A stretch of DNA of 64,000 nucleotides from Bacteroidales bacterium (GTDB lineage Bacteria; Bacteroidota; Bacteroidia; Bacteroidales; UBA10428). The translations under genes and the position numbers were made by a program. Within the stretch, counting starts at the first letter, position 1. Each line of letters starts with the position of its first letter. The stretch is from the NCBI GenBank assembly GCA_016929525.1, contig JAFGIP010000048.1, forward strand, positions 71,456 to 135,455, in the 5' to 3' direction. Positions 27,361-36,647 of the stretch are shown here, in pieces. A model generated the notes under the pieces. It made no database searches. It was not told where the DNA came from and saw only the letters and a list, made by a program, of their open reading frames with translations.

Positions 27361-29526
27361 ATGAAATCAATACAAATTCTTTTAAGAACAATATGTATCG
27401 GTTTGGTAAATCTATTTTGTCTCTTATCCATTGGGCAGGATAGTTATAATTGCACTTTATTGGGACGTTGGGCGAATGGGTCGACTTACTGTGTGGAAGT
27501 TACAGGGGATACAGCCTATTTTGCTAAAGGGGGATACCTCGATATCATCGACTTTACGAATGCCGGAAATCCTGTTTTGCTTTCAGAGACACTGATTAAC
27601 GGAGATATTCGGGGAATGGATATGAAGTCAGGTAAGGTGTTACTGGCCAACGGATATGAAGGACTTACTATTGTAGATGTTTCCTCAGCTTCCGATCCGG
27701 AGTTACATAGCAAATTGCCACTTTCGGAAACGGACTATGCTTTCGATGTTGAAGCAAATGATACCATGGCTTATGTTTTTGGAGAATACTACTTTCATAT
27801 CGTTGATATAAGCAATCCATCGGAACCTTTTGAAATAAATAGTTATGAGACCATGTTCTATGGATGGGAAGTTGAACTTCAGGATACCCTGGTATTTTTA
27901 GCCAACGCTTCAAGAGGCCTGCGAATTTTGAATATTGCAGACCCTTATGCTATTGATGAACTGTACAATTACGACCCGGGTGGTTATATACTTGGTGTAG
28001 CCATAAAAGATAATTATGCCTATCTGGCTTCCTCATCTAATGGACTGAGAGTACTCGATATAACCAATCTTTCCGATCCTTTGGAAGTTATAAATTTACC
28101 AGTAGACAGTTATACGATAGGGGTGACTATTGAAAGTAATAATCTTTTTCTGGCCAACACCGGAGAGGGACTGATTATATATGACATTTCAACACCCTCA
28201 AGTCCTGATTTTGTGGCTGATTTACCAACTTTATCAGAGGCTCAGCGTGTTGCAGTTTCAAATTCCCGGGCATATATACCGAGAAAATCCAAAGGTCTTT
28301 CTGTGGTAGATCTGTCAGACATTGAATCTCCTGAACAGCTATACGAGTATGAGACAACAGGCTCAATAATGGGTATCGATATTAAGGGTGATTATGCATT
28401 TGTTATTGAAGAAGATCATGGACTCAGAGTACTTGACATAGCTGATCCGGAAAATATTTTACATGTTGGTTTTATCGAAACGAACGATTACGCAACAGAC
28501 TTGTCTGTTGAAGGGGATTACGCTTATATGGCCTGCTATGAAAATGGAATTCGAATTATTGATATATCCGATCCGTCTGAACCTGATGAAGCCGGTCAGT
28601 ATTTAGCTACCGATGTGGCTGAGGATGTTTTTGTAATTGAAAACATGGCTTATGCAGCATACGGCGGGGATGGACTGAGAATAGTAGATGTTACAGATCC
28701 TGCAACCCCAGATGAACTTGGATTTTTTACGATGGAGGCTGATGCAAGAGATGTTATTGTTGAAAACGACCTGGCTTTTGTTCTGTTTAATGATTCGGGT
28801 TTGCACATCATCAATGTTGAAAATCCGGAGCTTACTGATGAATTAGGAAGCTTTATCCCCGACGGAACAACTACCGGAATAGGGACACAGAATAACAATG
28901 CATTTATAGCTACCTGGGATACCGGAGTATATTGCCTTGATATCTCCAATTTAAGTTTCCCTGATCAGGTTGGATTTTTTCAGGGTGATTATAATATTGG
29001 TGACATGATAGTCAGGAATGGTTATGCTTACCTGTCGTGTCAGGAGAACGGCGTTCATGTTCTGGATATCTCCGAACCGGAGGATCCCCGGGAAGTAGCC
29101 TGGTATAATACTCCCGGCTCGGTATATAGTATTGCAGTGCGTGACAATGTAATGTTCCTTGCCGACGGACGCGACGGCTTATATGCTGTCCGGCTGGATA
29201 CATCTCAGACCGGTGTATACTCATCCCGGGATCGTTCTGAGAATACCAGGTTCTCTTCACATCCGAATCCGTTTACTTTTAGCACTGAGCTTGATATTAC
29301 ATTACTCTTCGATTCAAAAGTAAACCTGACACTATACAGCATAGATGGACAATTAGTTAAAATGCTGATGAACAATGAATTTCTTAAGGCCGGAAAACAC
29401 CTGATATCTTGTGATGATAAAGGTGATTTCTACAATTTAATGACCGGTGATATTTATTTGGCTAAATTAGTAATAAGGAATGCTAATGGGGTAGAAGCGA
29501 AGACTATTAAGCTCGTTAAATACTGA
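27361..29526 (+). CDS. LVIVD repeat protein with T9SS type A CTD
   Basis: About 13 repeats of YAY.A….GL.I.DIS.P..P, and C-terminal HPNPF…Y..DGQLVK.L CTD. Confidence 0.9.
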   Translation: MKSIQILLRTICIGLVNLFCLLSIGQDSYNCTLLGRWANGSTYCVEVTGDTAYFAKGGYLDIIDFTNAGNPVLLSETLINGDIRGMDMKSGKVLLANGYEGLTIVDVSSASDPELHSKLPLSETDYAFDVEANDTMAYVFGEYYFHIVDISNPSEPFEINSYETMFYGWEVELQDTLVFLANASRGLRILNIADPYAIDELYNYDPGGYILGVAIKDNYAYLASSSNGLRVLDITNLSDPLEVINLPVDSYTIGVTIESNNLFLANTGEGLIIYDISTPSSPDFVADLPTLSEAQRVAVSNSRAYIPRKSKGLSVVDLSDIESPEQLYEYETTGSIMGIDIKGDYAFVIEEDHGLRVLDIADPENILHVGFIETNDYATDLSVEGDYAYMACYENGIRIIDISDPSEPDEAGQYLATDVAEDVFVIENMAYAAYGGDGLRIVDVTDPATPDELGFFTMEADARDVIVENDLAFVLFNDSGLHIINVENPELTDELGSFIPDGTTTGIGTQNNNAFIATWDTGVYCLDISNLSFPDQVGFFQGDYNIGDMIVRNGYAYLSCQENGVHVLDISEPEDPREVAWYNTPGSVYSIAVRDNVMFLADGRDGLYAVRLDTSQTGVYSSRDRSENTRFSSHPNPFTFSTELDITLLFDSKVNLTLYSIDGQLVKMLMNNEFLKAGKHLISCDDKGDFYNLMTGDIYLAKLVIRNANGVEAKTIKLVKY

Positions 29527-29557
29527 TATTTTCGTATTAAACTGATAAGCAGATCCA

Positions 29558-29648
29558 ATCCTCATAACAGTCAGAAACTCCTGTTTGCGGATTACAAACA
29601 AGCTAATAAGAGGCTGTAGAGCAGGAGAAGATTGTAAAATATGAGGAT
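29558..29648. other. Long interrupted hairpin
   Basis: Nested inverted repeats ATCCTCATA/TATGAGGAT, ACAGTC/GATTGT, CTCCTG/CAGGAG, TGTTTG/CAAACA. Confidence 0.5.
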
Positions 29649-29660
29649 AGAGTTAAATAA

Positions 29661-29687
29661 CAAAGTTATAATAATATTATGTTAAAT
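29661..29687 (+). other. dif-like site A (XerC|XerD orientation, 5-bp spacer)
   Basis: CAAAGTTATAA-TAATA-TTATGTTAAAT. Right arm is 11/11 to the E. coli XerD arm. Left arm is weak. Confidence 0.55.
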
Positions 29688-30019
29688 AGGATTATGAAGT
29701 TCCAGACAGAAAGGGGAGGACAGGCGAGGTTCGTTAAGTCAGGTGTTGATAAGACGTGAAAATATAACAATATCATATATTATAGATTTATAAAAGAATA
29801 GGTCGGTTCATTTAATGTAAAATGATAGGGCATATTCGCTTTTTGATTGCTTATTTGTAAGGTACTGCCATATACGATTAGATGAGCATCAGATCCGGTT
29901 CAGATGAGATCGCTCACCGGAAATTCAGAGATATTCAGGATTCATTTATCATTTATTAAAAGACCAGGGCATTTGTTAATTCAGGAACATCAATGAATTT
30001 TAAAAAAGATATCTTATAA

Positions 30020-31135
30020 TCATACAGTAGGTTTTTTCTCTTTTACCTGGTAAATACCGGTACTTTTTCTTTTACCTTTCAGTTTAATTATTCCTATTTC
30101 CTTAAAGAAATAAGCATCTTTGTCTTCTGTTCGTTTATACAGATCCTCAGAGATCAATAAATCCTGACGGTATTCATTGCACATACTTTCAATACGGGCT
30201 GCCGTGTTAATGGTATCACCGTTATAAGAGATGTCCCTTCGGCCTTGTCCGACCTGCAGTACCATTACATGCCCAACATGCACTCCGGCCTTGAACTTGG
30301 GTACCAGCTTATATTTCCGGTTGAAGTACTTTTTTCGTCCGGAAATCCTTTTTCTGAATGCAAAATAAGCTTTCAGGTAATTACAATCCAGTATCCCGCT
30401 ATTTACTTTCCATGATATAATGGCACCATCGCCTAAATATTGATATACTTCACCATGATAAAAACCAAATACTGTCATGTTATTAAAAACATCCTGTACC
30501 AGATAGCTGAATTTCTTGTGAAAAAGTTTCTCGGCAATAGTAGTGGACGATTTCATATCAAGAAACATAAATATCCGTTCTTCCTCCCTGGGTTTGCTAA
30601 GGATCCCAAAGAACCAGCGGATGAAATTCATTCTTCCCATGCTCATCCGCATTCCTTTTAAAAAGTTGAAAATAATTCCGCTTAAATAAAAATAGGCCAT
30701 AAAGCGAAAGAAATGAATATCCATCTTCGGGATTTGCTGAAAGATCTCTTCGTAGTTATCCATACGGAGCTGATTAACGGATAAACGAGCTGCAATCAGC
30801 ATCAATATAAAGGCAGAGCCGAAATAAACCAGCCACTTAAAAAATACGATCATTCGCATGGGCAGGAACCGGACTATGCGGTCGGTAATAAGCAAATTCA
30901 GCAGAAAGAACAGGAAAGAGATGGCAAAACCGAACACCAAAAGGATAATATATAAATTATCTAACAGAAGTAAATTAAAATACGTTGTAAAGACCTCATC
31001 ATCACCGGTAATGAAAATATAAAACAGGAAAATAACATACCAGTGAATGATTTGGTATAAAAGATATTTAAGGTGTTTAACTAATCTGTTCAGCTTCATA
31101 ATGACGATTTTGATGCAGAAAAATGTTCTTTTCAT
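30020..31135 (-). CDS. Membrane-anchored class III adenylate/guanylate cyclase
   Basis: Four N-terminal hydrophobic helices. Motifs FLDMKSST, YLGDG, GDTINTAARIES. Start may be the second Met at 31099. Confidence 0.88.
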   Translation of the reverse strand: MKRTFFCIKIVIMKLNRLVKHLKYLLYQIIHWYVIFLFYIFITGDDEVFTTYFNLLLLDNLYIILLVFGFAISFLFFLLNLLITDRIVRFLPMRMIVFFKWLVYFGSAFILMLIAARLSVNQLRMDNYEEIFQQIPKMDIHFFRFMAYFYLSGIIFNFLKGMRMSMGRMNFIRWFFGILSKPREEERIFMFLDMKSSTTIAEKLFHKKFSYLVQDVFNNMTVFGFYHGEVYQYLGDGAIISWKVNSGILDCNYLKAYFAFRKRISGRKKYFNRKYKLVPKFKAGVHVGHVMVLQVGQGRRDISYNGDTINTAARIESMCNEYRQDLLISEDLYKRTEDKDAYFFKEIGIIKLKGKRKSTGIYQVKEKKPTV

Positions 31136-31385
31136 GAAGTTACAAAAGCTTTCTGATATTAGACTAAATATGTTATGTGAAATGTGGGGAATGAAATTTT
31201 CTTTGATTTCCGGTGTGCGTAGTATAACACATTAATATGAACATACTATACTTAAACACTTTGCATGTTAGCATAAGCTTCAGCGAAGGTTGAGATAAGA
31301 GCGCTGAGGAAAATTTACTTAAGGGTGTGAGATTTAAATATTTCAAAAGTTTATTGGAAGTATTTAGGTAGTGGGCCGAAAATTT

Positions 31386-31408
31386 GCCTGCCTGCCGGCG
31401 AGGCAGGC
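31386..31408. repeat. Short GC-rich palindrome GCCTGCCTGCCGGCGAGGCAGGC
   Basis: Perfect 8-bp inverted repeat with a 7-nt loop. Absent at the equivalent position of element copy 2. Confidence 0.7.
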
Positions 31409-31476
31409 TTTTACATAAAATCAATGCCGTACTCAAACCACGCCAAGGCGTGGTCTTAGTACTGATGTTATGTTAA

Positions 31477-31494
31477 TCCCGATATGCATCGGGA
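31477..31494. repeat. Short palindrome TCCCGATATGCATCGGGA
   Basis: TCCCGAT/ATCGGGA inverted repeat. Copy 2 has CCGCAAGCGG at the same position. Confidence 0.7.
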
Positions 31495-31511
31495 CCACGA
31501 TTTCTCTGTGG

Positions 31512-31543
31512 TTGTCGTATAATGTTGGTGCATTATGTTAAGT
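31512..31543 (+). other. dif-like site C (XerC|XerD, 10-bp spacer)
   Basis: TTGTCGTATAA-TGTTGGTGCA-TTATGTTAAGT. Left arm is identical to that of site E. Right arm is 10/11 to the XerD arm. Confidence 0.6.
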
Positions 31544-31704
31544 TGCTTTGGAAATTAATTTTTTGAACGATAATTTATTTCCAAATGAAAGATTGAGACT
31601 AAAAGGTAACGGAGGGAGCAAGTATCATTAGTTACGTATTGCAAACACTCTTGTGGCGTAAGCATGGAGCTACAAGTGTGTGTTCGATTAAAAATAATTG
31701 TTCG

Positions 31705-31712
31705 TATATTTG
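31705..31712 (+). promoter_or_regulatory. -7 promoter element of the toxin-antitoxin operon
   Basis: TATATTTG 18 bp upstream of the ATG at 31730. Confidence 0.6.
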
Positions 31713-31729
31713 TAGAAACACAGCTATTA

Positions 31730-31969
31730 ATGCATACAATCAGGTTAAAAATAAATGATAAGGTTTATGACAAGATACTCTGGCTGCTGAGTAAATTTAG
31801 CAAGCACGAAGTAGAAATTATAAACGAGGATGCTGAGTTTTTCGAAAACCAGAAATACCTGGAGAAAGAGTTAGGTGATATAATTTCCGGTAATGCCCAG
31901 TTCATTGAAATGGATGAAGCTGAACAACGACTGGAAAATTTGATTAAACAACATGAAAATCGTATTTAA
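31730..31969 (+). CDS. Type II antitoxin (putative)
   Basis: 79-aa ORF with an acidic C-terminal half, overlapping the downstream toxin by 17 bp. Start chosen at the Met after the promoter. Confidence 0.75.
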   Translation: MHTIRLKINDKVYDKILWLLSKFSKHEVEIINEDAEFFENQKYLEKELGDIISGNAQFIEMDEAEQRLENLIKQHENRI

Positions 31970-32234
31970 GGATTCATTTCTGAATCGTTTAGAAAATCAA
32001 ATCGATTACATTGCTCAGGATAGCCCTGCGAGAGCCAGGAAATTTAAGAATGATCTGATATCTCGAATTAAGGAGATTCCAAATAATCCTTTCCGCTATA
32101 GGAAATCTATTTATTTTAACTCTGATGATATCCGGGATTTAATTTTTAAGGGGTATACCGTTGTTTTCAGAATTACAGAAGACAGAATTGAGATTTTCGG
32201 ATTCGTTAAGTATCAGAATTCTCCAACGGATTGA
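31953..32234 (+). CDS. RelE/ParE family toxin
   Basis: MKIVFKDSF…L…IDYIA.DSP..A..F…I..IPNNP…R…IRDLIFKGYTVVFRI, 93 aa, downstream of a small acidic ORF. Confidence 0.85.
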   Translation: MKIVFKDSFLNRLENQIDYIAQDSPARARKFKNDLISRIKEIPNNPFRYRKSIYFNSDDIRDLIFKGYTVVFRITEDRIEIFGFVKYQNSPTD

Positions 32235-32274
32235 TGAAATCCATAACTTAACAGGTTTGTACTAACCAAAGACA

Positions 32275-32302
32275 ATTTAATATAGTGCTAATTATGCGAC
32301 AA
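32275..32302 (-). other. dif-like site D (XerD|XerC on + strand, 6-bp spacer)
   Basis: Minus strand reads TTGTCGCATAA-TTAGCA-CTATATTAAAT. CGCATAA matches the E. coli XerC arm. XerD arm is 9/11. Confidence 0.7.
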
Positions 32303-32613
32303 ATGCATTACGTGAAGTTAATTCTAGCAAATAAGTCAAACACGATTGGTTTAAATAAAAACTGAATGTAGATTCAAGGACGAGACGTTCTATTTAATAT
32401 AATATCAATTATACTTAATAACTTTGATCAATACGTTGGAAGAAATCGCTCAGAAGTCTTTAGAATTAATTTTACGGAAAGATTATTAGGTTACGGGGAT
32501 AGGATACCGAGAAATCGCTTTAACATAATTTCATTACCGTACTCAAACACCGCTAAGGCGGCGTCCGAGTACTGAAATTATGTTAACCGCAAGCGGCCGC
32601 GATTTCTCTGCGG

Positions 32614-32641
32614 TTGTCGTATAATTAATATTATGTCAAAT
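32614..32641 (+). other. dif-like site E (canonical 11-6-11 geometry)
   Basis: TTGTCGTATAA-TTAATA-TTATGTCAAAT compared with E. coli dif GGTGCGCATAA-TGTATA-TTATGTTAAAT. Confidence 0.75.
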
Positions 32642-32656
32642 AAAAAGAAATAAAAG

Positions 32657-32680
32657 AAAGGAGAATATGAAATTCTCCCT
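32657..32680 (-). terminator. Possible terminator of the gyrA-TPR operon
   Basis: GGAGAAT/ATTCTCC stem beside an A-rich run, just past the TPR stop. Confidence 0.5.
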
Positions 32681-32691
32681 TCCCCGTAATA

Positions 32692-34059
32692 TTATTCAGC
32701 TGAGCAATCACTTGACTCTATCTCGGCTTTCATTTCCTCATACTTATCATTTAACTGCATGCGATAATATAGAGTTTTCAAAGTTTCCATAGTACTACAT
32801 TCCGATTTATCAATTTCATGAGCTTGCTCCATATATGGTACTGACTTATGTAAAACTTCTTCTGCTTCCTGTTTTGCAACTTCATATTCGTCAGCATCCT
32901 TAATTTCATCAGCTGCCTTGTACATTTCAACAGCTTTGTTGTAGTACATTACACCTATGTTATAATAGGCATTGAAGAACTGTGGATCCAGTAAAATACA
33001 TTTTTTATATGTTTCCAGGGCTTTGTCCGTATCTCCCATCTTGTCGTACAGAGTAGCTTCGGCAAAAATGAACGATATATTCTCCGGATCATCCTCCTGC
33101 GCTAATTTGAGATATTCAAGAGCATCTTGTGAACGATCTGCTATCAGGTAATAGTTAATAAGTTCGATTAAAATGGGCTGATTTTCAGGGAATTTCTTGA
33201 ATCCATCTTCCAATACCTGAACTCCCGTTGCTGTATCGCCCGTTTCCCAGTACTTTTGCTTGAGGAACACATATAAATCAGGTTCAGGATAATTGTATTT
33301 CCTTGCCAGTTCATAATAATTAATTGATTCATCAACCAAACCTGCTTTAGATGCAGCTAATCCACTATAATATAACATGGTAGTATCGACAATCCCTTCC
33401 ATTACAGGTTTCTCGTTGATAAGGTAAATATTTGAAAAAGACTTAAATGAATCTTTATAATTCTCTACAAAAAACTGCTCTATCCCTTGTCTTTCAAATA
33501 GTTTCTTCAGCCTGTCGTAATCTTCTTTAATATTTTTCTCTTTCTTATTTTCAATATCGGTTTCCTTGGCCTTATCTAATGCAACTAAGGCTTCTTCCAG
33601 CGGTGTTTCGTGCAAAGGATCAACTTCTGTAAGAGTTTCAACCTTAGTGTCCTTGAATACAACGGTAACATGTTCATATTTATATTCCTCAAAATTACTG
33701 CCTTCTTCCTGCCATGTTTTTTGTTCTGCCGGACTACCTCCCAGCAAAATCATCACATTAGCTTTATCAGTTCCCACCATGATCATTCCCCGGTATACTT
33801 CATAAATATCCATGAACATTTCTGCCCGTGAAAGCCAGTATTTTACAGAAGTATTCTTTTTCTCATCGTTGAGGTCATCCTCGCTTCTTTTCAGTTTGTT
33901 TTTCAGAATGCTATAGTTTGCATCCGGTGTGCCTGTTGTCGTTTGCCCTTTTATTCCTAAACTGAATGTCAGAAAAAAAATGGCTATTACGATTGCTACT
34001 TTGTTCATTTTTAATGTTTTATTTGATTTCCATATTATTGTAAACAAAAAATTTGCCAT
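32692..34059 (-). CDS. Tetratricopeptide repeat protein
   Basis: Signal peptide (likely start near 34008, MNKVAIV…) and several TPRs (AYYNIGVMYYN). Lies directly downstream of gyrA. Confidence 0.85.
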   Translation of the reverse strand: MANFLFTIIWKSNKTLKMNKVAIVIAIFFLTFSLGIKGQTTTGTPDANYSILKNKLKRSEDDLNDEKKNTSVKYWLSRAEMFMDIYEVYRGMIMVGTDKANVMILLGGSPAEQKTWQEEGSNFEEYKYEHVTVVFKDTKVETLTEVDPLHETPLEEALVALDKAKETDIENKKEKNIKEDYDRLKKLFERQGIEQFFVENYKDSFKSFSNIYLINEKPVMEGIVDTTMLYYSGLAASKAGLVDESINYYELARKYNYPEPDLYVFLKQKYWETGDTATGVQVLEDGFKKFPENQPILIELINYYLIADRSQDALEYLKLAQEDDPENISFIFAEATLYDKMGDTDKALETYKKCILLDPQFFNAYYNIGVMYYNKAVEMYKAADEIKDADEYEVAKQEAEEVLHKSVPYMEQAHEIDKSECSTMETLKTLYYRMQLNDKYEEMKAEIESSDCSAE

Positions 34060-34124
34060 GGTATGTTCATAGCAAATTTAATAATTCATGCAAGATATCC
34101 ATTAAATCATTCATTTATTGATAC

Positions 34125-36647
34125 CTATCCATTATTTTCTACCGGATTATCTGGTGTATCTTGTCCGGTTTCAAGGCCATCTTCCTCGTCTTCTTCTTCC
34201 TGACTCTTAATTACGCTTGCTACAGCAGCAATTGAATCTCCTTCACGCAGATTTATTAATCTTACACCCTGTGTAGCACGACCTGATATCCTGACATTTA
34301 TAACACTTAGTCTGATTGTAATACCTGACCGGTTAATGATCATAATATCATCGTTATCCGTAACCGCTTTTATTGAGATCAGACTACCTGTCTTCTCCGT
34401 AATATTAATAGTTTTTATTCCTTTTCCTCCACGATTGGTAATTCTGTAATCTTCAATACCGGTGCGTTTACCAAATCCTTTTTCGGAGACTACCAATACT
34501 GTTGTTTCTTCGTTTTCAGGTTCGATACATATCATTCCGACTACCTCGTCCCTTGAATCCTGTAATTTGATTCCAATTACCCCCGATGCTGTTCTTCCTA
34601 CCTGACGAACGGTACTTTCAGGAAAACGGATTGCTTTTCCGCTTCGCACTGCAAGCAAGAGATGATTTTTACCATTGGTAAGTCTTGCCTGCAAAAGGCT
34701 GTCTCCTTCCCTAATATTGATTGCGATTATACCATTTTGTCTTGGACGTGAATATGCTTCCAGCGTTGTTTTCTTTATTAGTCCGTGTTTTGTAGCAAGA
34801 ACAATATAATTATTGTTAATGTACTCATTATCAGAGAAATTCTTAACATTAATGAAAGCTTTAACTTTATCTTCAGCTTCAATAGATATAAGATTCTGAA
34901 TAGCCCTTCCTTTTGAAGTCCTTGTACCTTCCGGTATTTCATATACTTTAAGCCAGAAACACTTACCTTTCTCAGTAAAGAAAAGCATTGTATTATGCAT
35001 TGTAGCATGAAACATGTGTTCCAGAAAGTCTTCATCACGCGTATCACTGCCTTTGCTACCAACACCTCCCCTGTGTTGTGTTCTGAATTCAGTCAGTGGT
35101 GTACGTTTAATATAGCCCAGGTGTGAAATCGTGATGATCATATCATCGTCGGCATAAAAGTCTTCGGGATTAAACTCTTCAGCGCTGGGCACTATTTCTG
35201 TGCGTCGTTCATCACCATACTTTTCCTTTACCTCATGTATTTCATCTTTAATGATCTTCATCCGGATCTCCTCACTGGCTAATATTTCACGCAACCATTC
35301 GATGTGTTTCATAAGCTCTTCATATTCCTGACGCAGCTTTTCAATTTCAAGTCCGGTAAGTCTCTGCAAACGCATATCGAGAATAGCTTTGGCCTGGACT
35401 TCTGTAAGTTTGAACCTTTCCATCAACCCTTCACGTGCTTCATCAGTTGTTTTCGATGCACGAATAAGCTGTATAACTTCATCTATATTATCAACGGCTA
35501 TGATCAGACCCTCAAGTATATGGGCTCTCTTTTCAGATTGCTCCAGGTCGTACTGCGTACGTCGGATAACTACCTCGTGCCTGTGGTTTACAAAGTACTT
35601 AATGAGCTGTTGAAGATCAAGAATCCTTGGGCGACCCTTTACCAGAGCAATATTATTTACATTAAAACTTGTTTGTAACTGTGAATATTTAAACAAATTG
35701 TTTAAGACAACAGCAGATTGTGCCTCTTTTTTAAGGATTATTACAATGCGTAATCCTGTACGGTCTGATTCGTCGTTAATGTATGAAATACCATCAATCT
35801 TCTTTTCATTGATCATTTCGGCTATCTTCCTGATCATTTCCGCTTTGTTGACCTGATAAGGAATTTCGCTAATAACGATCCTTTCTCTGCCCGAATCTGT
35901 GATTTCAATTTCCGTCCTGGCTCTTACCACAATTCTGCCTCTCCCCGTCTCATACGCTTCTTTTACACCATTATATCCATATATAATACCACCTGTCGGG
36001 AAATCAGGAGCTTTAATATGGCTCATCAACTCTTCAATCGTAATATCATTATTATCGACATAAGCAATTATTGCATCGCATACCTCTTTCAGGTTGTGAG
36101 GAGGCATGTTGGTAGCCATTCCAACAGCAATACCTGAAGCACCATTCACCAGCAAACTCGGAATTCTAGTGGGAAGGACTGTAGGCTCTTCAAGCGAATC
36201 ATCAAAATTAAGCTGAAAATCTACGGTATTCTTATCCAGGTCCGAAAGAGTTTCTTCTGCAATTTTTTGCAGGCGGGCTTCTGTATAACGCATCGCGGCC
36301 GGACTATCACCATCCATCGATCCGAAATTCCCCTGTCCGTCTATAAGAGGATAACGTAACGACCAATCCTGAGCCATACGCACCATCGCATCATAAACGG
36401 AACTATCGCCATGAGGGTGGTATTTACCAAGCACCTCTCCTACGATTCTTGCCGATTTCTTAAATGGCCTGTTCGACATCACTCCCAATTCCGACATGCC
36501 AAATAAAACTCTGCGATGAACAGGTTTAAGACCGTCGCGCACATCCGGTAAAGCACGTGATACTATAACCGACATTGAATAATCAATGTAGGCTGATTTC
36601 ATTTCCTCCTCAATATTGATCTTGATTATTCTTTCTCCTTCTGCCAT
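34125..36647 (-). CDS. gyrA: DNA gyrase subunit A
   Basis: [34 protein letters not shown], GyrA box QHRGGVG and C-terminal pinwheel repeats. Confidence 0.98.

Follow-up and report, generated by a model that had tools for sequence, protein, structure and literature searches.

The window analysed here is a stretch of 64,000 nucleotides from a 136-kb contig of a Bacteroidales bacterium (GenBank assembly GCA_016929525.1). It carries two direct copies of a non-coding element, one on either side of a ParE-type toxin-antitoxin gene pair (31664-32234). Our preferred reading, held with moderate confidence, is that the element is a folded single-strand attachment module which forms the right end of Xer-exploiting cassettes that lack a recombinase and are stacked at the chromosomal dif site. 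Judged from its sequence, the arrangement is probably an integron-like gene-capture system run by the housekeeping Xer recombinases. The module comprises two inverted dif-like sites (inverted sites 1 and 2), a direct repeat of one strand of helix P1, a core built of helices P1, P2 and P3, and the XerC arm of the cassette.

The folded core and its linkage to dif

A repeat finder aligned the two copies at 31407-31476 and 32517-32586 (80% over 70 nt) and at 31495-31523 and 32597-32625 (93% over 29 nt), and their well-supported homology amounts to about 115 nt (31377-31511 and 32509-32613). A preliminary description of this DNA had drawn a duplicated element of about 310-330 bp. Two direct copies do exist, and they are the only ones in the 4.06-Mb assembly, where a genome search found no third; the full-length homology is weak in copy 1, where identity with the family consensus is 63% and where TATACTTAA..ACTTTG and CGCTGAGG are the only recognisable upstream blocks. 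Each copy ends, as had been proposed, at the XerC-type arm TTGTCGTATAA of a dif-like C|D site. Two such paired sites were found in the window against none in 100 shuffles: copy 1 lies beside site C, with a 10-bp spacer, and copy 2 beside site D, with an 11-6-11 layout.

The core was studied with a covariance model, R1, built from 20 copies without the Xer site and evaluated on 39 matches; copy 1 scores 59.9 bits (E=2e-10) and copy 2 scores 108.5 bits. Across related copies from other genomes the core folds as a three-way junction. P1, a 10-bp closing helix, varies in sequence between genomes and keeps its complementarity (GAGAAATCGC/GCGATTTCTC, GAAAATTTAC/GTAAATTTTC, GGAAACTTTC/GAAAGTTTCC, GCAAAAACC/GGTTTTTGC and others), P2 is a long hairpin and P3 a small, variable one. 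In copy 2, P2 runs from a 9-bp XerD-arm duplex through 5 bp, a 5-nt bulge and GTACTC/GAGTAC to an apical stem, which bears out the long hairpin of the preliminary description, with its 14-bp stem (perfect in copy 2) and one-sided bulge. The nine basal pairs, TTAACATAA/TTATGTTAA, are essentially invariant and the next five covary. A bulge of 3-5 nt on the 5′ strand then leads to a 6-bp inner stem of at least 8 different sequence versions, paired at 5 or 6 of its 6 positions in 38 of the 39 copies, 36 of them after a bulge of 3-5 nt.

Standard pairs fill 96.2% of pair cells in the 39 copies, compared with 83.3% in shuffles and 35-49% with slid partners, and 136 cells hold double changes, compared with 42 in shuffles. 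The covariation first noticed between the two window copies is thus borne out, and compensatory changes across families and phyla show, at the level of sequence, purifying selection on the fold. One detail of the earlier fold did not survive. Its last hairpin, CCAC/GTGG against CCGC/GCGG, is of a CCRC..GYGG type present in only 9 of the 39 copies; the conserved closing helix is P1, which had been overlooked. The earlier account had also noted one mismatch that turns into a G:T wobble on the minus strand only. Mismatches of the A:C type (19) are about as common in the core as those of the G:T type (29, of which 13 fall at one closing pair), so the core alone gives no indication of the folding strand; within P1 there are 15 G:T and 5 A:C. 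A weak likeness to an entire dif-like site, to be read as a lead, can be traced in the 3′ strand of P2, which matches the XerC arm on average at 5.6 of 11 positions in register, compared with 1.6-3.9 when shifted, and perfectly in one genome. Rfam gave no match at E<=1 (29000-35000) or at gathering score (whole window), and the element matches no insertion sequence (IS) end.

Linkage to dif-like sites had been set beforehand as a test. Even though R1 excludes the site, the XerC-type arm TGTCNNATAA follows the core within 40 nt in 37 of the 39 matches, and a complete C|D site, either dif or of the 10-bp type, does so in 32. The core occurs in 31 of 77 family genomes and in 5 of 8 genera; 13 of the family genomes have at least two, up to a maximum of 8, with several at contig ends. 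Among 300 further genomes of the order 12 have it, no two of them from one family. An exact-pattern scan of species representatives placed it mostly in uncultured sediment Bacteroidales and, beyond the order, in the cultured Aureibaculum luteum SM1352, with its core at L113:4423, and in metagenome-assembled genomes (MAGs) of Crocinitomicaceae, Luteibaculum, Chlorobiota and Ignavibacteria. In those distant genomes the core always lies beside dif and has new compensatory versions of P1. Because it combines a patchy distribution with multi-copy genomes, the core argues for a mobile element and not a host feature.

Site D is the true chromosomal dif. Genomes of the family and order have its 28-mer roughly once each, even where they lack everything else of the element; on the 136-kb contig, cumulative GC skew reaches its maximum in the bin ending 69 bp before the site; and its right flank, a tetratricopeptide repeat (TPR) protein gene followed by gyrA, is conserved. 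Open reading frames (ORFs) of about 450 aa and 838 aa lie to the right of dif in six genomes of the same genus (G002, G003, G008, G009, G014 and G018), where they were matched to the TPR and gyrA genes by size, position and orientation. The family and order consensus is TTGTC[GC]TATAA-TTAATA-TTATGTTAAAT, whose right arm exactly matches the XerD arm of Escherichia coli dif. On the other side, two relatives (L055, G002:C9, 1-73; L048, G010:C215) share GGACAAATGCnnGCAAATTTTTTGCCAnAGCATT right before the XerC arm of their leftmost 10-bp site. By its sequence and place this is likely the native left flank of dif before the first cassette; nothing like it was found on the window's own contig.

Cassette stacks and the outer hairpin

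In the window and four relatives (G002, G010, G012 and G019) the sites split the DNA on the XerC side of dif into 9 cassettes of 0.9-6.8 kb, with 19 of 22 ORFs co-oriented with the sites. Their cargo includes ParDE and HepT/MNT pairs, Por_Secre_tail proteins (with the tail of type IX secretion system (T9SS) substrates), leucine-rich repeat (LRR) and GH16 proteins and a cyclase. Pfam detected no Rep, integrase or other replication or recombination domain among the cassette ORFs, and no phage gene lay beside the core in the copies examined. Internal junctions take the form GTCGTATAA-TGnnnnTGCA-TTATGTTAA-nnnnGCTTTG, of which related genomes hold 18 distinct examples, and the rightmost junction of a stack is always dif itself. 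This layout is the product that repeated insertion at dif would be expected to leave. The ParDE cassette of the window is flanked by sites C and D in direct orientation, and G002, G010 and G019 have a like layout. The features of the window are as follows.

29664..29690, + strand: site A, a dif-like relic, AAGTTATAA-TAATA-TTATGTTAAAT(AGG), from sequence.
30020..31135, - strand: the cassette 1 cargo gene, for a membrane protein that contains an adenylate/guanylate cyclase domain (Pfam PF00211, E=2.7e-9), oriented opposite to the sites.
31235..31263, - strand: in copy 1, the decayed counterpart of inverted dif-like site 2, including TATACTTAAACACTTTG (repeat D8, 88% over 17 nt), set against the conserved block CTATTTAATATAATATCCATTATACTTGAC of relatives.
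31301..31324, + strand: in copy 1, GCGCTGAGG and then the distal direct repeat of the P1 5′ strand (GAAAATTTAC), aligned with long modules of the family.
31377..31511, + strand: core of copy 1 (repeats D1 and D2, model R1, alignment), with P1 5′ at 31378-31387, P2 at 31410-31476, P3 at 31477-31494 and P1 3′ at 31497-31506.
31512..31543, + strand: site C, an internal cassette junction, TTGTCGTATAA-TGTTGGTGCA (10 bp)-TTATGTTAAGT, then GCTTTGG, from sequence.
31664..32234, + strand: cargo of cassette 2, an antitoxin-like ORF (31664-31969, no Pfam family match) overlapping a ParE-family toxin (31953-32234, Pfam PF05016 ParE_toxin, E=1.3e-12).
32275..32302, - strand: inverted dif-like site 1, TTGTCGCATAA-TTAGCA-CTATATTAAAT on that strand, the 5′ arm of the outer hairpin (single-stranded DNA (ssDNA) and consensus folds).
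32392..32419, - strand: inverted dif-like site 2, ATTAAGTATAA-TTGATA-TTATATTAAAT on that strand, from sequence and conservation.
32439..32449, + strand: distal direct repeat of the P1 5′ strand (GAAGAAATCGC), alternative partner of the P1 3′ strand (covariation, alignment of 6 modules).
32497..32509, + strand: GGATAGGATACCG box immediately 5′ of P1, kept within the genus (alignment).
32509..32608, + strand: core of copy 2, a three-way junction (model R1, covariation), with P1 pairing 32509-32518 to 32599-32608, P2 at 32520-32586 and P3 at 32587-32596.
32614..32641, + strand: site D, chromosomal dif, TTGTCGTATAA-TTAATA-TTATGTCAAAT (11-6-11), from 28-mer distribution, GC skew and flank.
32692..36647, - strand: right flank of dif, the TPR protein gene (32692-34059) and gyrA (34125-36647), from Pfam.

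No tRNA or tmRNA was found in the window. Site A combines a perfect XerD-type arm and the usual ATAG flank with a spacer of 5 bp and a XerC-type arm that is degenerate, and on the 136-kb contig TTATGTYAAATAG recurs at this site only. Its sequence suggests that it is possibly the decayed leftmost junction of the stack, in which case the gene for a T9SS-tailed LVIVD protein at 27361-29526 would be chromosomal. In copy 1, P2 has a single A>T change in its 5′ XerD-arm copy, the P1 3′ strand complements its partner only partly, and an extra 20-nt GC-rich palindrome (31388-31407) follows the P1 strand.

The full module spans about 370 nt (32275-32641). Inverted sites 1 and 2 are conserved in many copies, about 218 and 100 nt upstream of the core. 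No block of the long module is better conserved than site 2, and the complement of site 2 agrees with dif in spacer and XerD arm; the TATACTTAA..ACTTTG and CGCT.AG.A blocks belong to site 2 and to the distal repeat of the P1 strand. Folded as ssDNA, 32268-32645 gave a z-score of -6.35, with inverted site 1 paired to site D and the core in the loop, and a consensus fold of 6 modules returned the same outer pairing with the core looped. Across 13 distinct modules, read on the plus strand, the XerC-arm part of this outer pairing has 125 of 143 Watson-Crick pairs, 10 G:T and 1 A:C, and the XerD-arm part 104 of 143, with 19 G:T and 4 A:C. The exceptions in the outer stem are therefore mostly G:T on the plus strand, 29 against 5 A:C. 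Position 6 of the XerC arm covaries, G-C in some modules and C-G in others. The central regions are unequal, 10 nt facing 6 nt, and within the 10-nt spacer an invariant TGCA is paired to the TGC in the inverted site, leaving an asymmetric bubble beside the XerC arm. The preliminary description had likened the distances from XerD arm to inner stem to the spacers of sites C and A; for site C, the pairing of TGCA with TGC explains the 10-bp spacing instead. The P1 3′ strand has two mutually exclusive partners, both of which covary.

Some modules are much shorter. In these, the inverted site abuts the C|D site in a 75-nt hairpin without a core (for example TTATGCGACA-TTTTC-TGTCGCATAA), and variants with P2 or the whole core deleted also occur. 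Core-less short modules and core deletions together identify the outer hairpin as the common denominator, with the core an elaboration in its loop. The folded strand had earlier been proposed as a recombination substrate in the form of P2. The idea of a folded module is kept here in a changed form: P2 is probably not the main attachment hairpin, since some cassettes have no core and keep an inverted site abutting the C|D site, and since the outer pair encloses the core in the long form.

Several irregular modules were seen alongside these. One (L041, G019:C3, reverse strand, about 2460-2523) has lost P2 precisely between TTAA repeats at its base and retains P1 and P3, reading GGATAGGATACCG-AGAAATTGC-TTTAA-TCCCGATCGATCGGGG-CC-GCAATTTCT, the type of loss expected of an unstable hairpin. 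Short, GC-rich perfect palindromes (CTGCCTGCCGGCGAGGCAGG, CCTGCATGCCGAAGCGGTAGTGCAGGCAGG, TCCCGATTTTTCATCGGGA) are inserted at differing points of homologous modules: at 31388-31407 of the window, at 650-679 of L177 (G014:C211) and at about 6790-6810 of L049 (G010:C70), one of them within the spacer of a site. Their appearance is that of tiny hairpins, either mobile or born by slippage, and P3 is sometimes of a TCCCGAT..ATCGGGA type. Tandem cores about 120-190 nt apart with no cargo between them (L069, G027:C1, 1501-1723; L088, G022:C48, 1315-1596) would be empty cassettes or a duplicated module. A metagenome contig has the same start of the ParDE cassette (4 differences in 347 nt) and a different upstream module. 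Contigs of runs X2 and X3, from other marine-sediment metagenomes, join window 29664-29693 to 32390-32410, so that C|D and inverted D|C sites stand head to head at their XerD ends (TTATGTTAAATAG/CTATTTAATATAA), an arrangement absent from the genomes examined.

The host encodes a XerD (344.8 bits against a curated cut-off of 329.6) and a XerC-like protein slightly below its cut-off (323 bits against 335); no match to the tyrosine recombinase family PF00589 was found on the 136-kb contig. Cassettes at dif-like sites with no recombinase or Rep of their own, in a host with these two proteins, agree with the earlier proposal of a non-autonomous Xer-exploiting element. The best integrase_gron score in the genome, on another contig, is 192.9 against a cut-off of 265, and the orthologues of that gene do not follow the occurrence of the core. 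The genome also encodes a third Xer-like tyrosine recombinase (G000 C120:4770-6110; L164/L168), 447 aa long and extended at its N terminus by 175 aa, which scores 238.5 against a cut-off of 220 for the XerA/integron-integrase family NF040815. As a candidate cassette enzyme it was rejected because it does not occur in step with the core: in G006, G014, G016 and G018 there are cores and no match to it, and many core-less genomes have a match. Relatives share only 42-44% identity with it and are often found at contig ends, which makes it likely to be part of another mobile element.

In G014, a 25-kb element (L051/L052, G014:C10, 687-25900) separates a core and its XerC arm from the true dif. Besides many small ORFs it encodes a primase-like protein and a DNA methyltransferase; at its left junction the TTAATA spacer is kept and the XerD arm is degenerate (TTCGTTAAAAA). 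The element is probably a further Xer-exploiting island or prophage, of a different type, and its position shows that the dif side of the core is used by other elements too.

A proposed model of capture and its alternatives

We propose that the outer inverted site pairs with the C|D site of the cassette on the plus strand, which the positive GC skew left of dif suggests is the lagging-strand template of this replichore. The product would be a hairpin of imperfect pairing, its two arms paired and its centre an asymmetric bubble, like the folded CTX attP(+) and, more loosely, integron attC sites, with which we compare it here (PMC4246890, PMC2727003, PMC4792948). Host XerC and XerD would then exchange one pair of strands between the folded, or possibly duplex, cassette site and dif, and replication would resolve the junction. 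To the left of the insertion this would leave the 10-bp spacer and XerD arm of the cassette; to the right, the cassette's module and XerC arm would now run into what dif supplies, a spacer and a XerD arm. The right junction would thus be an intact dif, open to the next cassette, and the internal 10-bp sites, as poor Xer substrates, would be inert, which would keep the cassettes in their stack. The core lies in the loop of the outer hairpin, where it probably serves as an accessory fold and offers XerD a second, nested duplex to bind; its role may be to retain XerD, to choose the strand or to fix the direction.

Several observations weigh against this proposal. A source of single strands is missing: Rep_trans was not found in the 77 family genomes, nor was Phage_F, in a search that had no positive control, and the core pattern is absent from IMG/VR viral contigs, where the 10-bp site and the dif 28-mer each matched one uninformative contig. 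No excised circle or empty site was seen in Logan contigs of complex sediment metagenomes, which are fragmentary, and Xer recombination in Bacteroidota lacks experimental study (PMC3091885). The core is dispensable for a cassette in a stack, as the short modules and deletions attest, and its A:C mismatches rival G:T in number. The wobble asymmetry of the outer stem comes from three conserved positions in related copies and thus from few independent events, and it would fit RNA equally well; the outer XerC-arm pairing also has a G-G mismatch in 2 of 10 long modules. In the window itself, cassette 1 has a reversed gene, a decayed module and an ill-defined left border at site A. ParDE homologues in G010, G012 and G014 (78-83% identity) were tried as a guide to cassette borders and given up: their homology ends inside the cassette, at 31600-32225, and the borders are not common to them.

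The same evidence bears on what else the module could be. It might act solely as duplex DNA, as pdif-like Xer-binding or accessory sites, the palindromes being a by-product of two site orientations. The ParDE pair is indeed bounded by a C|D site on its left (31512-31543) and a D|C site on its right (32275-32302), alternating as in dif modules (PMC6449649, PMC13141974). The XerD-arm 9-mers of P2 are conserved in sequence beyond what pairing demands, and the balance of A:C and G:T in the core suits a duplex. We nevertheless regard this as unlikely, since P1, P3, the inner P2 stem and P2b are not Xer-like and yet covary, which duplex sites do not need, and since the outer inverted site departs from dif by transitions that preserve pairing on one strand only. 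Alternation is not strict either, two inverted sites being consecutive, and 10-bp spacers are unfit for a complete two-strand exchange by tyrosine recombinases, whose spacers measure 6-8 bp. A structured RNA, whether the 3′ untranslated end of the cassette mRNA or a small RNA, acting as a stabiliser, a terminator or a switch between two forms of P1, strikes us as improbable: it leaves unexplained why helices are built from dif arms, why an invariant 9-nt XerD arm sits amid covarying pairs and why the junction with the XerC arm is constant. It would account for the co-orientation of most cassette ORFs with the module, for the plus-strand wobbles of the outer stem and of P1, and for the two exclusive, covarying partners of the P1 3′ strand, which are riboregulator-like. 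The gene of cassette 1 runs the opposite way, Rfam has no match, and sampled words of the stretch were absent from the RNA runs of the source study.

The many genomes with a single copy directly beside dif, on its XerC side, would suit a host accessory region that regulates dimer resolution in the manner of cer and psi, whose accessory sequences lie on the XerC side, with the second copy a local duplication. We consider this highly improbable for an element that is absent from 46 of the 77 family genomes, all of which still carry dif, that is patchy across families and phyla, reaches 8 copies in one genome, also stands beside internal 10-bp sites that are not dif, and is separated from dif by 25 kb in G014. 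Least probable of all, to a degree that we find hard to credit, is that the copies are functionless, decaying relics of an extinct element, such as the ends of an ssDNA prophage or a repeat resembling a miniature inverted-repeat transposable element (MITE). Copy 1 shows decay, having gained an insertion while its P1 is broken and its inverted sites are gone; deletion variants occur, and dif-like sites, in some cases with an additional inverted one, flank ssDNA phages of Bacteroidota (PMC3091885, PMC9719478). Against decay stand the selection on the fold seen across several families and phyla, the lack of any phage gene beside the examined copies and of any viral contig with the core.

If the attachment-module reading is true, cassettes are captured in order without an integron integrase, and the dimer-resolution machinery suffices, given a cassette end that folds. 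Folded-DNA recombination sites would then extend beyond integron attC and CTX attP to an ecologically dominant group in which classical integrons are rare, and the stacks would offer a natural model for how integron recombination might have arisen from Xer. The reading would also explain a hotspot of accessory genes, with toxin-antitoxin pairs and secreted surface proteins, at the replication terminus. The analysis defines dif of these lineages; its covariance model finds such stacks in metagenomes, and the 75-nt short module and 100-nt core are small enough for direct biochemistry with purified XerC and XerD. More tentatively, and with rather less confidence than we place in the module itself, we speculate that Bacteroidota together with Chlorobiota/Ignavibacteria have an integrase-free capture platform, in which dif would be the dock, XerC and XerD the enzymes, the folding cassette sites the substrates and the core the determinant of strand choice or direction, with dif left intact. 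With such a platform, the step from Xer to integrons would have a counterpart that is still alive today.

Relation to known mobile elements

Full-text searches of the literature turned up Xer-exploiting phages and satellites, Acinetobacter dif modules, integrons, rAID-1 and Bacteroidota ssDNA prophages at dif; they returned no description of dif cassette stacks with folded modules, nor of the core. The pdif modules of Acinetobacter are likewise gene modules, often toxin-antitoxin pairs, that are bounded by XerC/XerD-type sites and have no dedicated recombinase, and the ParDE pair of the window also lies between a C|D and a D|C site. Those modules sit on plasmids, with 6-bp spacers and single, shared, alternating sites. 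The elements described here are chromosomal, lie at the true dif in direct stacks, have 10-bp internal spacers, and use their inverted sites as hairpin partners around a structured loop.

Within Bacteroidales, rAID-1 (Ross et al. 2019; 10.1101/471110) shares the integron-like rows of accessory genes separated by repetitive intergenic sequences. It differs in carrying a XerD-like recombinase gene at its 5′ end and in not lying at dif, whereas the 136-kb contig yielded no recombinase at the head of the array or elsewhere and the repeats here are dif-like sites with a folded module. The ssDNA prophages of Bacteroidota (Alpavirinae, PMC3091885; PhiCjT23-like, PMC9719478) belong to the same phylum, lack an integrase and have dif-like flanks, and some Alpavirinae have an extra dif-like sequence near one end that its authors likened to the inverted pair of CTX (PMC3091885). 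They measure 4.7 to 8.4 kb and have Rep and capsid genes, none of which were found in or near the cassettes.

Closer in arrangement are the CTX-type integrative mobile elements exploiting Xer (IMEX) of Vibrio cholerae, with the RS1 and TLC satellites stacked at dif. As in these, the cassettes are inserted at chromosomal dif, in direct order and with direct dif-like flanks, have a non-canonical left junction and lack a recombinase of their own, the host supplying XerD and a XerC-like protein. The likeness extends to CTX attP(+), in which two inverted dif-like sites (attP1/attP2) pair on one strand, with their arms paired and an unequal, partly unpaired centre, as the outer hairpin does. CTX-type elements are phages that produce single-stranded circles; the cassettes are cargo units of 1-7 kb in which no Rep, capsid or other phage gene, nor another source of single strands, was found. 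The loop of the module is also far more elaborate, about 300 nt with a covarying three-way fold, a second XerD-arm duplex and a further inverted site, and the hosts are Bacteroidota and Chlorobiota.

Integrons are the other close parallel. They too are arrays of small, mostly co-oriented cassettes with unrelated cargo and many toxin-antitoxin pairs, with a single docking site at the end of the array. Their docking site is attI, with intI beside it at the head of the array; here no integron integrase was found, and the docking site is the chromosome's own dif. The attachment sites differ in having full 11-bp XerC/XerD-type arms instead of R and L boxes and in belonging to a module of up to 370 nt. 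In both systems each cassette ends in an imperfect hairpin site whose structure is conserved more than its sequence, and the XerD arm GTTAAAT fits the R′ consensus of attC, GTTRRRY.

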